This document shows, piece by piece, positions 3,281-58,545 of a stretch of 64,000 nucleotides of DNA. Below the pieces are notes generated by a model. It did no database searches and had not been told where the DNA came from. It saw only the letters and a list, made by a program, of their open reading frames with translations. Position numbers and translations under genes: made by a program. The stretch lies in IMG/VR virus record IMGVR_UViG_3300035703_002708. One strand, given 5' to 3'. The DNA comes from a virus (lineage: Duplodnaviria > Caudoviricetes). Positions within the stretch are counted from its first letter, which is position 1; the number at the start of each line of letters is the position of its first letter.

Positions 3281-5581
3281 ATGTCTTGTCAATATAATTT
3301 TAGTCAATTTTCAGTAACAGGAGACTGTGAAAATAATAGTTCTGGAGGTTTTACGCTTTACTTATCCTCAACCTCGGAACCGATGAGTATTACTTGGTTG
3401 TTGCCAAATCCATGGCCACCCGGCATTGGAGGACCTCAAGTCGAGACCCCAATTTATAATGGAACTTACACTTATTTAGGAATTCCTGCAGGAACATATG
3501 TTTTTACTGTAAATGATAGTTGCGGAAGTCCTACCGCCACCACTGAAAATAATAGAGAAACTATAAGTATTACTATATCATCAGGTTCGTCATGCGTCAA
3601 TATAACAGATGTTGTAAATACCACTTGCGGTAATTCTGATGGTTCTTTATTGGCAACTGTTCAGAATACAAATGGTGCTGTTAATATCAAACTATATTTG
3701 GAGGATAATGATGGTAGAGTAGTCCCATTACCACAACCACCAGGTCAAGAAGATATTACGTTTATTAGGGAAGTTGAAATAGACAATGACAATTATTTAT
3801 TTGATAATCTTCCGTATGGAAAATATTATGTTATTGCTGATGATGGAGGAGGTTGTACAGGAAGAAGTGAAAGTGTCATAATATTACCATCGGTAGGTGT
3901 TAATTTCGGGACATATATTGTTAATGATGCGGACTGTGGTAATGTAGAAACAGGTGTTGGTAAGATTTTTATAACAGGTTTGACAGGCACTGGGCCCTAC
4001 ACTTATAGATGGGAAGGTGTTGGTACTACATTAGATTATTTGGTTAACACTGAACAACCACTTACAGGTACATCAATAACAGGATTAACCGCCGGTTTTT
4101 ATCAGGCTACAGTCACGGACTCGAATGGTTGTAGTTTTTCTGTGATATCACAAGTTATCGAAAAACTTCCTGTAAGTTTAGGCAGCGTTTCAACATCACC
4201 ACCCACATGTTTTGATAGTAACGGGAAAATAACAGTACAAGTACTTAATGGTACTCCACCATATAGATTTAGTATCCCATCTATTTCATTTACAGATATA
4301 AGTTATTCTCAAACATACGTTTTCAGTGGTTTACCCGGGGGTAACTACACTATAGTAATAACCGATGCGGCTCTCTGCAGTGTTTCAACAACGACACAAA
4401 TAAATCAATCCAATAGCTTTGCTTTGGGGCCGGTGACTATTATCCCACCAACTTGCGGAAATTCAAATGGTTCCATTTCGATAGGACTCGTTGGTAACAC
4501 AAATTCAAGTAGTTATTTATATTCTTTGAGTGGTGCTAATGGAGTAACTTTTTCGAGTGTAACATCAACTAACAACACATTTTCTAATTTATTACCTCAG
4601 AATTATTTTCTTACAATTACCGACAATATTTGTACCTATACTCAGTTAATAAACTTATCGTCCAATTCACTTTTTACCATATCAACACAAACTTCGGGTG
4701 CAACATGTGGTAATAATAACGGGAGTGTTACCATAACTAAATCAACAGGTGGTACAAGTACCTTTTCATATTGGATAGAGGATGTTGATGGGAATAACGA
4801 CCAAACATTGGACAACACACCACTGAGTTCTTGTACATTTTACAATTTGGCGCCTGGAAGTTATATTGCTTACGTAAGTGACAAAAATAGATGTCAAGAA
4901 CAAACCTTCTTTGAAATAAGTAACAGTGAACCTGTAAATTTTATTTTGATACCAACGGATTCCACAAATGGGTCAAACGGACAAATAATTGCAAATATCT
5001 ATCAAGGAACACCTCCTTTTACTTTGACATGGTCATCTAATGTCAATGGACAAACAGGTACAACTGTAACTAATTTATCTGCCGGTACCTATAGTCTCAT
5101 AGTGCAAGACAGTGCAGGTTGCGTTCAGTCCAATACGGTTACACTGTCAGGTACTTATAATGCAACAAATTTCTCATTGTTTAATGTATGTAATAGCGTG
5201 ATAAGTTCTACCGGACAATTTACAGAAAGAAGTTTATCAAAGATGTTAGTTGAGGGTTACATAGATTTGACTAGTGGATGTACAAATTGTCTTATGAATT
5301 CGGCAATATTTTCAGCGGTTACAACAGTTGCAGGAACTGGTTTTAGTCAGTCTTTCTATACCGCAACAACGTTAAACGATGTTCCTTCAGAATCAAATTG
5401 GGCGACAACTGTTCAGAATCTTCTTAGTGGTATAACAGGTGTAGGTACCGTTACAGTTAATACTACAGAAAACACAATTACATTAGACACTTCTTGTGAG
5501 GAAAGTACAAACGCATTGGCCAATCAAAATATTACCGTCGAACTTAAAATTGTTTATGACATAGATTGTGAAAGTTGTTAA
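3281..5581 (+). CDS. SprB-repeat, Cys/Thr-rich putative tail fibre/adhesin
   Basis: Several units of the form TC..xxG.I.v...gGTpPY.y.w....f.nL.aG.Y...vTD.ngC, matching SprB repeats by eye. Confidence 0.65.
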   Translation: MSCQYNFSQFSVTGDCENNSSGGFTLYLSSTSEPMSITWLLPNPWPPGIGGPQVETPIYNGTYTYLGIPAGTYVFTVNDSCGSPTATTENNRETISITISSGSSCVNITDVVNTTCGNSDGSLLATVQNTNGAVNIKLYLEDNDGRVVPLPQPPGQEDITFIREVEIDNDNYLFDNLPYGKYYVIADDGGGCTGRSESVIILPSVGVNFGTYIVNDADCGNVETGVGKIFITGLTGTGPYTYRWEGVGTTLDYLVNTEQPLTGTSITGLTAGFYQATVTDSNGCSFSVISQVIEKLPVSLGSVSTSPPTCFDSNGKITVQVLNGTPPYRFSIPSISFTDISYSQTYVFSGLPGGNYTIVITDAALCSVSTTTQINQSNSFALGPVTIIPPTCGNSNGSISIGLVGNTNSSSYLYSLSGANGVTFSSVTSTNNTFSNLLPQNYFLTITDNICTYTQLINLSSNSLFTISTQTSGATCGNNNGSVTITKSTGGTSTFSYWIEDVDGNNDQTLDNTPLSSCTFYNLAPGSYIAYVSDKNRCQEQTFFEISNSEPVNFILIPTDSTNGSNGQIIANIYQGTPPFTLTWSSNVNGQTGTTVTNLSAGTYSLIVQDSAGCVQSNTVTLSGTYNATNFSLFNVCNSVISSTGQFTERSLSKMLVEGYIDLTSGCTNCLMNSAIFSAVTTVAGTGFSQSFYTATTLNDVPSESNWATTVQNLLSGITGVGTVTVNTTENTITLDTSCEESTNALANQNITVELKIVYDIDCESC

Positions 5582-39534: not shown

Positions 39535-39879
39535 ATGGACATAATAGTAGATAAACCACAGTTAGTAAGAGTAGTTTTACTGTATCTTAATAAGAATTTT
39601 GGAAATTTAACTCCTAAGACTAGTTCAAAATTTCCTGACTCAGTATTTTACGTAAACTCAGATAACGAGATTCTTATGGAATACAATAAGGAAACTGAAC
39701 GTGTTTATATTCATTACGACCAAATTTGGTCAAAATTCGAATCGTTATTTCACCTTAATCCTGTGGATATTCTATCAATTATGAAAGTTTGGTTGGAAGA
39801 GGATTACAAATTGGGGAATTCAAAACTTCGTATCCTCCCAAAGCACTCTGTTAACCATTGGAAGAGACTTACAAATTGA
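39535..39879 (+). CDS. Hypothetical protein with N-terminal leader
   Basis: MDIIVDKPQLVRVVLLYLNK; TATTTAT at 39523. Confidence 0.6.
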   Translation: MDIIVDKPQLVRVVLLYLNKNFGNLTPKTSSKFPDSVFYVNSDNEILMEYNKETERVYIHYDQIWSKFESLFHLNPVDILSIMKVWLEEDYKLGNSKLRILPKHSVNHWKRLTN

Positions 39880-56070: not shown

Positions 56071-57696
56071 ATGGCAAAGTTCCGAAATTCCGCAGTTGTA
56101 GAAAAATTAGATAACACCCCACCCAAAGAAAACTTGGTTGCATCAAACGCAGTTCCGAAACCCGATACGACAAATCTTCAAGGGTTCGAGGCTTATTCAA
56201 TTGAAAATTGGCTCCGTCTGATTTCTATTTTGAATACTTCTAAATTGGAGAACCAGTATTATCGTTCAGAAACAGAAACTATGAAAGAGTTGAAATCTCT
56301 TGTGGATATCTGTGGTAAAGAGGACCCATACTTTGTGGCTCAGTGTATCGTGTATTCTCGTTGTATTGGTGAGGGTATGAGAAGTATTAATCACTTGGCG
56401 GCAGTTTATCTTGCTCCATTTATGAGTGGTAAAGACTGGTCAAAACGTTTCTTCTCAGGTTGGGATAAGAAATCTCAAAAAGGAGGTACCGTGTTTCGTC
56501 CTGATGATATGAGTGAGATGGTTAGTTGTTTTACCGCCCTTAATGGTAAGTCAATCACCAACTCAATGAAAAAAGGTTTTGCCTCTACGTTAGAGAAACT
56601 TGACACATACTCACTTTTGAAGTATAAGAGTTCGATTTTGGATTTGTTCAATTTGGTTCATCCAAAACAAGAAAACTCAAACGCCACCGTTGAATTCGAA
56701 GGTAGGGTTGTTCCAACATTTGAAGCCATCGTTAAAGGTTATAATGTGTCTGCTGACACTTGGGAGGTTGCTCAGTCAGATGCTGGACAAATTGTGGCTC
56801 AGGCGGTTCGTGAAGGTAAAATCTCAACAGAAGAAGCAAAACAAGTTCTTACTGAGGCAAAGTCTGAGAATTGGAAAGGATTACTTACCGAAAACAAACT
56901 TGGTATCTTGGCAGCAGTTCGTAACATTCGTAACATTCTGTTGAACAAACCTGATGGTGACACTATTAATAAGTTGTGTTCTCTTTTGAGTGATGAAGCC
57001 GCAATTCGTAACGGAAAGGTAATGCCATACCAATTAGATATGGCTAACGAAGTTCTAATATCAGAATTTAACGATTCTAACTCTCGTAAGGTATCAAAGG
57101 CGTTACTTGATGGTTATGAAAAATCCATTCCGAACCTTGCTGAGTTACTTACAGGTAACAACCTTGTAATGATTGATATGTCAGGTTCTATGAACACAGG
57201 AATCAATGACCCTAAAGGCAAGTCACGTTACAAATCTACGTGTTTGGACAAGGCATCACTAATCGGTATGACAATCGCCAAGGCAGTAAACGCCGATGTA
57301 ATTCGTTTCGGTTCACACGCTGAGTATGTTTCTTACAATACAAACTCTGATGTGTTCAGTTTGTCTAAATCTATCATTCAAGGAATGGGAGGAACCTCAC
57401 TGGCACAAGCGTGGAGTACGGCAGAAGCATCAGGTCGTAAGTATGATAGAGTATTTATTCTGTCAGATAATGAGTGTAATGAAGGTTCAACTTACTCTCG
57501 ATACAAGAGTTATGTTGAAAAAGTTGGGGACCCGTATGTCTATTCAATAGACCTAGCCGCTTACGGAACAATGGCTATCGCGGGACCAAAAGTAAGATAC
57601 TACTACGGATATGGTTTTTCAATGTTCGAAGATATTGCAAAATCAGAGTTCAACCCGATGCACCACATCGAAAAAATCCGCAAAGTAGAAATCTAA
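56071..57696 (+). CDS. TROVE-domain Ro60/Rsr-like RNA-binding protein with vWA domain
   Basis: NLQGFEAY, DPYFVAQCIVYSR..GMRS (TROVE); MIDMSGSM MIDAS, GGTS, ILSDNE, IDLAAYG (vWA); 541 aa. Confidence 0.9.
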   Translation: MAKFRNSAVVEKLDNTPPKENLVASNAVPKPDTTNLQGFEAYSIENWLRLISILNTSKLENQYYRSETETMKELKSLVDICGKEDPYFVAQCIVYSRCIGEGMRSINHLAAVYLAPFMSGKDWSKRFFSGWDKKSQKGGTVFRPDDMSEMVSCFTALNGKSITNSMKKGFASTLEKLDTYSLLKYKSSILDLFNLVHPKQENSNATVEFEGRVVPTFEAIVKGYNVSADTWEVAQSDAGQIVAQAVREGKISTEEAKQVLTEAKSENWKGLLTENKLGILAAVRNIRNILLNKPDGDTINKLCSLLSDEAAIRNGKVMPYQLDMANEVLISEFNDSNSRKVSKALLDGYEKSIPNLAELLTGNNLVMIDMSGSMNTGINDPKGKSRYKSTCLDKASLIGMTIAKAVNADVIRFGSHAEYVSYNTNSDVFSLSKSIIQGMGGTSLAQAWSTAEASGRKYDRVFILSDNECNEGSTYSRYKSYVEKVGDPYVYSIDLAAYGTMAIAGPKVRYYYGYGFSMFEDIAKSEFNPMHHIEKIRKVEI

Positions 57697-57708
57697 TGGG
57701 GATTAGTT

Positions 57709-57739
57709 ATGGGGTGAATGGTTGATTCACCCCATTTTT
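57709..57739 (+). terminator. Intrinsic terminator after the TROVE gene
   Basis: ATGGGGTGAAT-loop-ATTCACCCCAT followed by TTTT. Confidence 0.8.
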
Positions 57740-57759
57740 CAAAAAAACAATCAACCCAC

Positions 57760-57788
57760 TTGACTGGTGTCAAAAGTTTGATTAATAT
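57760..57788 (+). promoter_or_regulatory. -35/-10 promoter of the ncRNA unit
   Basis: TTGACT-N17-TAATAT; boxA-like GTTCTTT at 57798. Confidence 0.6.
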
Positions 57789-57812
57789 TGTCACATAGTT
57801 CTTTAAAAAATA

Positions 57813-57939
57813 GACGTAGTAAGATTAGGGTTACTTCAATACATCGGTTCGAATCCGATACCTGTGAAAACAGGTTAGACAAGTGGATAAGTCGGAATTC
57901 TCATAAATTCAAAACAACACCCTGTTCATCATTCTCGTC
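57813..57939 (+). ncRNA. Y-RNA-like RNA 1 (YrlA-like) with permuted tRNA-like insert
   Basis: GACG/CGTC closing stem, TAGTAA..GTTACTTC and AACAC..ATTCT motifs; internal T-arm ATCGG-TTCGAAT-CCGAT; next to Ro60 gene. Confidence 0.75.
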
Positions 57940-57951
57940 ACCTTATACTTT

Positions 57952-58024
57952 AAGGTAGTAAGTTAAGTGTTACTTCGAAATAATCTGGAAATGTTCAAAA
58001 AAAAACACTTACGATATTCTCCTT
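57952..58024 (+). ncRNA. Y-RNA-like RNA 2 (short form)
   Basis: AAGG/CCTT closing stem, same motifs, 8-bp inner stem TAAGTGTT/AACACTTA. Confidence 0.65.
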
Positions 58025-58037
58025 AAATCGTTCTTTT

Positions 58038-58166
58038 CAGATAGTAATTCAAGAGTTACTTCTACAATTTAAATTAAATCGCGCCCTATATGGGCATCTA
58101 TCTATGAACGAAATCTAACCTTCGGGTTATTTTTCACCTAAAAACACTCTTGGAAAAATTCTTCTG
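58038..58166 (+). ncRNA. Y-RNA-like RNA 3
   Basis: CAGA/TCTG closing stem, same motifs, CAAGAGT/ACTCTTG inner stem, hairpins GCCC-TATAT-GGGC and TAACC-TTCG-GGTTA. Confidence 0.65.
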
Positions 58167-58175
58167 AATTCATTT

Positions 58176-58205
58176 AAAAAGGGGACCATCGGGTCTCCTT
58201 TTTTT
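58176..58205 (+). terminator. Intrinsic terminator ending the ncRNA unit
   Basis: AAAAAGGGGACC-ATCG-GGTCTCC followed by T run. Confidence 0.8.
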
Positions 58206-58239
58206 GTTTTATACACTATTTATAAAAAAAGGACATACT

Positions 58240-58545
58240 ATGGTTAATATAATGATTTCTGAAGAACAACTTGCCAGATTGGTTAATAAAATGAAACCAG
58301 TTAATGAAAGCAAAGATGGTAGTTATATGGCAAAACAACAACTATTTACCATCGCTACAATGGCTCACGAAATGTGGCAAGCGTTGGATGAGGGAGAACA
58401 ATTGGACGATTGGATGGAATCAAAAATCGCACAAGCAGACCAAAGTATTACTTCCGTTGTTAAGGCTTATTTCTATGATGAGATAACCGATGACCAAAAA
58501 GGAATGGGAATGTTGAATTACGATGATTTAGTAATAGGAAAATAA
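58240..58545 (+). CDS. Small protein with N-terminal leader, putative head-internal protein
   Basis: MVNIMISEEQLARLVNKMKPVNE; TATTTAT at 58217. Confidence 0.6.
   Translation: MVNIMISEEQLARLVNKMKPVNESKDGSYMAKQQLFTIATMAHEMWQALDEGEQLDDWMESKIAQADQSITSVVKAYFYDEITDDQKGMGMLNYDDLVIGK

Follow-up and report, generated by a model that had tools for sequence, protein, structure and literature searches.

Downstream of the Ro60 (Rsr) gene of a large, uncultured freshwater phage lie two RNAs, called here copies 2 and 3. We propose that both are functional and belong to an operon of three Y RNAs serving the phage's own Ro60, a reading that we hold to be probable, though well short of certain. The stretch of DNA analysed, which is 64,000 nucleotides long and is called the window throughout, carries three Y-like RNAs built on one conserved frame whose middle part differs from copy to copy. 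Y RNAs are thought to act as a docking stem joined to an effector module. To our knowledge, only the tRNA-like module has been studied in bacteria and no role has been established for the 'second' Y RNAs, the group to which we compare copies 2 and 3.

Genomic setting of the three RNAs

The 541-aa protein encoded upstream of the RNAs aligns over its full length with the Ro60/TROVE protein of the Thermus phage phiLo (PDB 9KOP/9L5Y; E 2e-10), which is its best match among solved structures, and it also matches phrog_850, an 'RNA-binding protein' (E 1.4e-32); Pfam TROVE and vWA_Ro60 match it below threshold only. The gene neighbourhood is usual for a phage (GIY-YIG, DNA methylase, DHH, NUDIX and thymidylate synthase), and the contigs related to the window, viral or metagenomic, come from freshwater and reach 312 kb. 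The region is organized as follows.

56071..57696, + strand, Ro60/Rsr gene (TROVE + vWA), 541 aa; matches phiLo Ro60 and phrog_850
57711..57739, + strand, terminator-like hairpin and T run 3' of the Ro60 gene; direct reading, with compensatory changes in orthologs
57760..57788, + strand, promoter-like site for the RNA operon (TTGACT, 17 nt, TAATAT); consensus match only, the arrangement being kept upstream of orthologous arrays
57798..57811, + strand, leader element, GTTCTTT and A run; conserved in 12/12 arrays examined
57813..57939, + strand, Y-like RNA copy 1, with a tRNA-like module
57950..58026, + strand, Y-like RNA copy 2, short-loop (minimal) form; model R1 and ortholog comparison
58036..58168, + strand, Y-like RNA copy 3, two-hairpin form; folding and covariation in orthologs
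58176..58203, + strand, intrinsic terminator ending the RNA operon; 12-bp stem and T run, with compensatory changes in orthologs

The three RNAs form one promoter-to-terminator unit on the same strand as the TROVE/Ro60 gene and downstream of it. From the TROVE stop codon it is 254 nt to the start of copy 2 and 340 nt to that of copy 3, which places both inside the distance of about 2 kb from a Ro60 ortholog that characterizes Y RNAs. The spacers between the RNAs measure 10 and 9 nt and are constant in length and partly conserved in sequence in the orthologs. The single promoter-like site, the single terminator and the spacers of 9-10 nt, all conserved in orthologs, together with the presence of such RNAs within the tRNA arrays of relatives, make it plausible that the three RNAs are cut from one precursor transcript, as had been supposed in the original prediction made from the DNA alone.

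That prediction also drew attention to the heptamer GTTCTTT ahead of copies 1 and 3. Both sites exist (57798-57804 and 58030-58036), but their repetition carries little weight, since the internal site is kept only in the window clade and L152 (it reads ATACTT in L129, L130, L146 and L002, and is absent in L132) and since the window contains the heptamer 32 times, where 22 +/- 5 are expected. That the internal GTTCTTT might signal processing or antitermination ahead of copy 3 was consequently rejected, half of the orthologs not conserving it and the heptamer being frequent in the window. The leader site behaves differently: followed by A/G and then by A, it stands ahead of the leading tRNA-like copy in 12/12 arrays, and the L139-type arrays carry a short-loop copy upstream of it. 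Taken with its A run (57798-57811), it presumably resembles the boxA antitermination elements of rrn operons.

A frame common to the three RNAs

From 5' to 3', the frame opens with stem A, of 5-6 bp, and UAGUAA, followed after 2-4 nt by stem B, of 7-9 bp, and by the strand (G)UUACUUC / GUUACUUC. Then comes the middle part. On its 3' side, an A-rich tract with AC as its last letters leads into stem B', and a few nt closing with UUCU separate stem B' from stem A'. The sequences of stems A and B differ among the three paralogues and their pairing is kept.

A covariance model, R1, was constructed from 24 short-loop copies, including copy 2 of the window and five of its orthologs, and with stem A left out. 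On the 64-kb window it gave exactly three credible matches: copy 2 (E 4e-12, 74 bits, a score obtained by construction, copy 2 being a seed sequence), copy 3 (4e-4) and copy 1 (8e-4). A fourth match, at 39557-39639 (E 0.73), lies within a 114-aa ORF and was dismissed as chance. The R1 census returned 88 matches, 77 of them distinct, across 58 loci, with a share of short-loop RNAs that is inflated by the training of the model on short-loop copies. In the short-loop class, stem B exhibits two-sided changes at 7/7 pairs. For stem A, a register-free test was applied. Of 68 distinct RNAs, 87% show 5/5 pairing between the 3' tail and the 5 nt preceding UAGUAA, versus 19% when heads and tails are cross-paired; 41 different 5-mers occupy this position. 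The RNAs have the long end-to-end stem with a conserved internal loop that is typical of Y RNAs, both stems covarying and the UAGUAA / UUCU loop lying between them, and the 5' motif conserved throughout the family is (G/A)UAGUAA.

The shared frame is beyond chance, and all the features that the original prediction had ascribed to copies 2 and 3 are found where it had placed them. Its notion of a conserved protein-binding frame with swappable payloads holds in part. Middle parts that differ are indeed enclosed by a frame whose stems covary and which is tied to TROVE genes, and this frame is plausibly protein-binding, but an exchange of cassettes is unsupported, since the relatives display a tRNA-like core that is present or absent within the same frame, together with gradual divergence.

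Copy 2 and the short-loop class

Copy 2 is made of the following elements, the boundaries of its loop being set by comparison with the other copies.

57950-57955 with 58021-58026, copy 2 stem A
57956-57961, copy 2 UAGUAA
57964-57970 with 58005-58011, copy 2 stem B
57977-58004, copy 2 loop or insert, 28 nt, 57% A, with eight terminal A

The loop is unpaired in RNAfold, and the RNA as a whole has a z of -1.2. The weakly structured insert of about 25 nt ending in an A run that had been described here is thus confirmed as an unpaired insert of 28 nt, but the A run belongs to the frame and not to the payload, because an A-rich tract just 5' of stem B' is common to all three copies and to most relatives. 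Over the final 8 nt of the middle part, the share of A is 62% for the short-loop class and 47% for the long one, versus 37% in the window.

The frame of copy 2 is identical at 46-49 of its 49 positions in the orthologs, while Ro60 third-codon identity drops from 92% to 57%; for the most distant pair (46/49 identical at 57% third-codon identity) P is about 1e-8. Compared with L132, copy 2 is 90% identical overall, against 77% for copies 1 and 3, and its loop has no change over the first 21 nt (P about 8e-6; 57% synonymous identity). This conserved segment could be a protein-binding or an RNA-binding site. In L125 and L001, whose Ro60 is 98-99% identical, 7-8 of the 28 aligned loop positions differ, which is beyond the synonymous expectation (P about 0.005), and three or four loop 'alleles' can be distinguished within the clade. 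The divergence in L125 and L001 fits either a relaxed constraint or a changed specificity.

The short-loop frame-bearing RNAs number 37 distinct members, with loops of about 17-40 nt, and the A content is 46% across 27 short-loop relatives. The T-arm/D-arm classifier mislabels some copies, including copy 1 of the window, and only its class 'short, no T-arm' was used. In three loci (L016, L234 and L239), even a search with filters off detects beside TROVE no RNA of this frame other than a short-loop copy. In L080 and L006, short-loop copies lie 1-7 nt from the flanking tRNA genes (L080:5880-6650; L006:6796-7228), a spacing for which release by tRNA-processing enzymes is expected, and this suggests that these copies are freed by such enzymes. 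The tRNA-less form is selected, and it may be sufficient alone.

Where the loop of copy 2 comes from is indicated by L136 and L137 (Ro60 76% identical), in which the frame of copy 2, with the same stem A and stem B sequences, encloses a 111-nt tRNA-like insert whose 5' linker resembles the short-loop starts of the window clade and of the L009/L139 group. Considering these frames and the deletion seen in copy 1 of L125, we prefer to regard the 'payload' of copy 2 as linker strands corresponding to those of a tRNA-like Y RNA, with no core between them; the change may have gone either way, by deletion or by insertion. The insert (L136:4644-4801, L137:2863-3020) is in T-arm-first order, with a T-arm, a 7-bp acceptor hairpin and a D-arm.

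Copy 1 also varies among close relatives. At L125:2730-2819 (Ro60 99% identical) its insert is reduced to 44 nt, the T-arm and acceptor hairpin being gone and the D-arm and anticodon-like arm kept, which reflects either a recent module deletion or an assembly artefact; at L132:2289-2402 the copy 1 ortholog is without the anticodon-like arm, and the neighbouring copy 2 is the one that is 90% identical to that of the window. The frame is also found around tRNA inserts in normal order (L008:4711-4836, 4851-4978 and 1497-1628; L009:3593-3721; L072:3366-3493). These inserts score as Rfam tRNA with 49-61 bits (gathering score 29) and are in effect whole tRNAs inside a Y RNA frame. The relatives in T-arm-first, i.e. 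rotated, order give sub-threshold YrlA matches of 29-39 bits (gathering score 69).

The two-hairpin module of copy 3

Copy 3 is made of the following elements.

58037-58041 with 58163-58167, copy 3 stem A
58048-58056 with 58146-58154, copy 3 stem B
58063-58145, copy 3 insert, 83 nt
58083-58095, copy 3 hairpin 1 (GCCC, 5-nt loop, GGGC)
58110-58135, copy 3 hairpin 2 (about 9 pairs and an internal loop, UUCG cap)

AU-rich linkers separate the two hairpins, so that the insert of about 80 nt with a UUCG hairpin, a GCCC/GGGC hairpin and AU-rich stretches that had been predicted is borne out, with a length of 83 nt. The minimum free energy of copy 3 is -29.5 kcal/mol (z = -3.9), and 0/200 shuffles are as stable.

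This architecture is kept in nine orthologs from about six lineages, for which RNAalifold recovers stems A and B and both hairpins, and single-sequence MFE folds repeat the layout in 8/9. In the alignment, 97.7% of the cells are paired, compared with 29-59% in slid controls, and 5 pairs carry two-sided changes, a number reached by 0/500 shuffles; these covariation statistics rest on few independent events, since the module comes from about six lineages of one clade only. Hairpin 1 changes from GCCC/GGGC to GUCC/GGAC in L152, the lower stem of hairpin 2 is altered in sequence in every lineage, and the tetraloop of hairpin 2 changes from UUCG to GCAA in L132. Where the identity at synonymous sites is 66-73%, that of the insert is 74-79%, and its linkers vary. 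Since the pairing of the hairpins is kept through these changes while the linkers vary, the shape of the module is selected and the sequence of its linkers is not. The original prediction had named the absence of compensatory changes, as in decaying duplicates, as one result that would speak against it; what is found is that the frames are conserved and that the hairpins of copy 3 carry such changes, and both copies are under purifying selection rather than decaying.

The module is confined to the window clade, and a frame pattern specific to copy 3 retrieved only two already known contigs from IMG/VR. By its position in the array and by a shared stem A, copy 3 corresponds to the fourth copy of L137 and L006, which is tRNA-like, in T-arm-first (rotated) order, and has a UUCG-capped acceptor hairpin. 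A homology of the copy 3 hairpins with the T-arm and the UUCG-capped acceptor hairpin of that copy was not retained, though it may be conceivable: MAFFT places them opposite each other and their identity is unconvincing. Hairpin 2 with the next ACC was rejected as an acceptor-like minihelix, the ACC being conserved in neither L132 nor L152.

Linkage of the frame to TROVE genes

A protein-anchored search provided 9 viral and 31 metagenome loci whose Ro60 is 58-99% identical to that of the window. The search of viral and MAG contigs by RNA pattern produced matches most of which were due to chance and were removed by a full-frame test. Among the 115 viral loci found by RNA pattern alone, 8/8 with a TROVE gene have a credible frame, and none of those without a credible frame (about 100 of the 115) has a TROVE gene; in three further frame-bearing contigs the TROVE gene is elsewhere on the contig. 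For the credible frame-bearing MAG loci, TROVE is within 8 kb in 7/9, and at an eighth TROVE-bearing MAG locus, L234, the frame was found only by model R1. Several of the frame-bearing MAG loci may be prophages or phage contigs, since several also carry tRNA arrays and GOLLD RNA.

The GOLLD RNA (Rfam RF02032) lies in the MAG contigs L250 (1268-1741 and 3004-3478) and L234 (4718-5213), with TROVE genes, tRNA arrays and Y-like RNAs of this frame a few kb away at most; two copies score 158 and 160 bits, above the gathering score, and the third scores 143 bits, just below it. A separate observation concerns some 250 nt that look structured and include a T-arm-like hairpin, located directly 3' of the Ro60 gene at L006:4640-4890 and also present in L005, L007 and L138 (Ro60 75% identical). 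Rfam gives no match for this stretch, which also lacks the Y frame; the Y array is 1.3 kb further on.

Proposed model and alternative readings

In the model we propose, all three RNAs would offer the same docking module to Ro60, which comprises stems A and B, the asymmetric internal loop between them, where UAGUAA faces UUCU, and two junction strands, GUUACUUC being the 5' one and the A-rich tract the 3' one. Having the same docking module, copies 1 to 3 would compete for one site on the Ro60 ring and give rise to three kinds of particle. By analogy with Deinococcus, Salmonella and the phage phiLo, the stem would gate Ro60 and the middle part would set the effector that is tethered. Copy 2 is the minimal form, in which the docking module is closed by a 28-nt single-stranded A-rich loop, and copy 3 carries a lineage-specific two-hairpin module, conserved in shape and not in sequence, that would act as a shape-specific adaptor. 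The tRNA-less copies would lead either to gate-only particles or to particles docked via single-stranded A-rich RNA. The effector would most likely be a host 3'-5' exoribonuclease such as PNPase; in the complete 294-kb relative no RNase_PH/PNPase gene and no RtcB gene were found, so that an exoribonuclease partner would have to be supplied by the host. About 13 kb from its Ro60 locus, the same relative has an ORF of the PolyA_pol/CCA-adding family (244 aa, G006:C1:258389-258811).

A broader form of this model, which we consider possible but doubtful, would make the frame a general Ro60-docking scaffold for a multi-adaptor set, in which the 21-nt segment of copy 2 and the module of copy 3 would dock different host or phage proteins, e.g. 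ribonucleases or defence nucleases, and the loop alleles would track these partners. If this were true, one Ro60 ring could be redirected to several effectors during infection.

Three other readings have to be weighed against the operon of functional Y RNAs. Copies 2 and 3 might be decaying duplicates, i.e. non-functional remnants of tRNA-like Y RNAs after the loss of their module. Module loss does occur in the clade (copy 1 of L125, copy 1 of L132, the insert of L136/L137 relative to copy 2) and very close relatives diverge strongly in the copy 2 loop, but decay is hardly compatible with frames of copies 2 and 3 that are 94-100% identical where synonymous sites are 57-92% identical, with a copy 2 that is the best conserved of the three RNAs in the comparison with L132, with the compensatory changes in the copy 3 hairpins, or with the recurrence of short-loop copies in many lineages, where they can be the sole frame-bearing RNA beside TROVE. 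We regard this explanation as extremely improbable. Hardly less improbable is that the RNAs act as guides, the copy 2 loop and the copy 3 linkers pairing with host or phage transcripts and bringing Ro60 to them, as the original prediction had envisaged as one option. Both copies do have single-stranded stretches, 21 nt of the copy 2 loop are conserved across lineages at 57% synonymous identity, and the loop alleles differ between clades as those of target-tracking guides might. The complementarity is nevertheless at chance level: the longest complements in the 64-kb window, both strands included, measure 9-12 nt, and 31-94% of shuffled queries do as well or better; in copy 3 it is the hairpins that are kept and the single-stranded linkers that are poorly conserved. 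Base-pairing guides are not known among Y RNAs (cf. PMC4201824), and this also counts against the reading; the base-pairing part of the original prediction finds no support in the window.

It is also conceivable, although we judge it unlikely, that the operon produces one multi-domain scaffold, an uncut RNA of roughly 370 nt that would hold several Ro60 rings together. The single promoter-like site and single terminator, the spacers of constant length (10 and 9 nt) and partly conserved sequence, and the dimeric and higher-order particles formed by phiLo Ro60 on Y-like RNA (PMC12135203) would all agree with it. Against it, YrlA and YrlB of M. smegmatis are processed from one precursor (PMC4201824), single copies in relatives stand alone or 1-7 nt from tRNA genes, which implies excision, and copy number and order vary among the arrays. 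The reading of copies 2 and 3 as separate, functional partners of the phage Ro60 is the one we retain.

The idea of a second, non-tRNA Y RNA has already been published. What is new here is a distinct and widely distributed frame that the current Rfam models miss, a tRNA-less form that is more conserved and is sometimes the sole copy, orthologous frames with and without the tRNA core, and a conserved two-hairpin module. Since its motif is missed by those models, many phage Y RNAs are probably unannotated. The relatives, about 77 of them distinct, constitute a natural series on an invariant frame, from the full tRNA through the rotated-order tRNA, the partly deleted tRNA and the two-hairpin module to the bare loop. 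With this series, and with orthologous frames differing only in the tRNA core, the contribution of the module to Ro60 becomes directly testable with matched RNAs.

Comparison with known Y RNAs

No Rfam family, YrlA and Y_RNA included, matches copies 2 or 3 at the gathering score or in a search of 57600-58300 with E up to 10. No tRNA or tmRNA gene is predicted by ARAGORN anywhere in the window, and blastn of the RNA region against 50,697 deposited phage genomes gives no match. Neither a T-loop nor a D-arm is present in copy 2 or in the insert of copy 3. A GNCGAAN0-1G (CGAA) motif is known near the 5' end of bacterial and phage Y RNAs (PMC4201824, PMC12135203); it is literally absent from copies 1 and 3, and copy 2 has CGAA only, within ACUUCGAAAU.

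With YrlA (Rfam RF02553), copies 2 and 3 have in common the docking stem and the position beside Ro60, but they are without its T-arm, its D-arm and its acceptor-like stem. Another parallel is with the 'second' Y RNAs. Species possess two or more Y RNAs, one of which is not tRNA-like (PMC4201824), and in M. smegmatis YrlA and YrlB come from a common precursor by processing (PMC4201824). YrlB of Salmonella Typhimurium and M. smegmatis and Yrn2 of Deinococcus radiodurans likewise lie beside the Ro60 gene together with a tRNA-like Y RNA, have a long terminal stem and a small loop but no full tRNA-like domain, a layout that copy 2 would share, and have been proposed to allow Ro60 to form other particles (PMC4201824). 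They differ from copy 2 by loops described as small and pyrimidine-rich, whereas that of copy 2 is 57% A, and by the T-arm that M. smegmatis YrlB keeps and copy 2 is without (PMC4201824). There is no detectable sequence similarity, the conserved motif being UAGUAA / GUUACUUC here and GNCGAAN0-1G there. As for copy 3, its 83-nt structured two-hairpin module is unlike the YrlB/Yrn2 loop and has no described counterpart.

In Deinococcus and Salmonella, Ro60 binds the stem of the Y RNA and the rest of the RNA tethers an effector, PNPase (PMC4201824), and the Ro60 of phiLo binds two phage Y-like RNAs and the host PNPase (PMC12135203). phiLo, with Yrl1 and Yrl2, likewise combines a phage Ro60 with more than one adjacent Y-like RNA (PMC12135203), and the effector, host-derived in phiLo (PMC12135203), would also come from the host in the phage of the window. 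The RNAs of phiLo lie upstream of the Ro60 gene and were picked by their CGAA motif (PMC12135203), whereas those of the window are three, lie downstream in a transcription unit of their own and have a different conserved frame, with arrays of up to 4-6 copies in relatives. The metazoan Y RNA paralogues (human Y1, Y3, Y4 and Y5) likewise associate one conserved Ro60-binding stem with divergent loops that bind different proteins (see PMC4201824); they have no sequence relationship with the phage RNAs, and are eukaryotic pol III genes as opposed to a bacterial-type operon. By analogy, copies 2 and 3 would be Y RNAs by position and function, outside Rfam YrlA and Y_RNA, and would be the counterpart in this phage of YrlB, of Yrn2 and of the Yrl1 and Yrl2 RNAs of phiLo.
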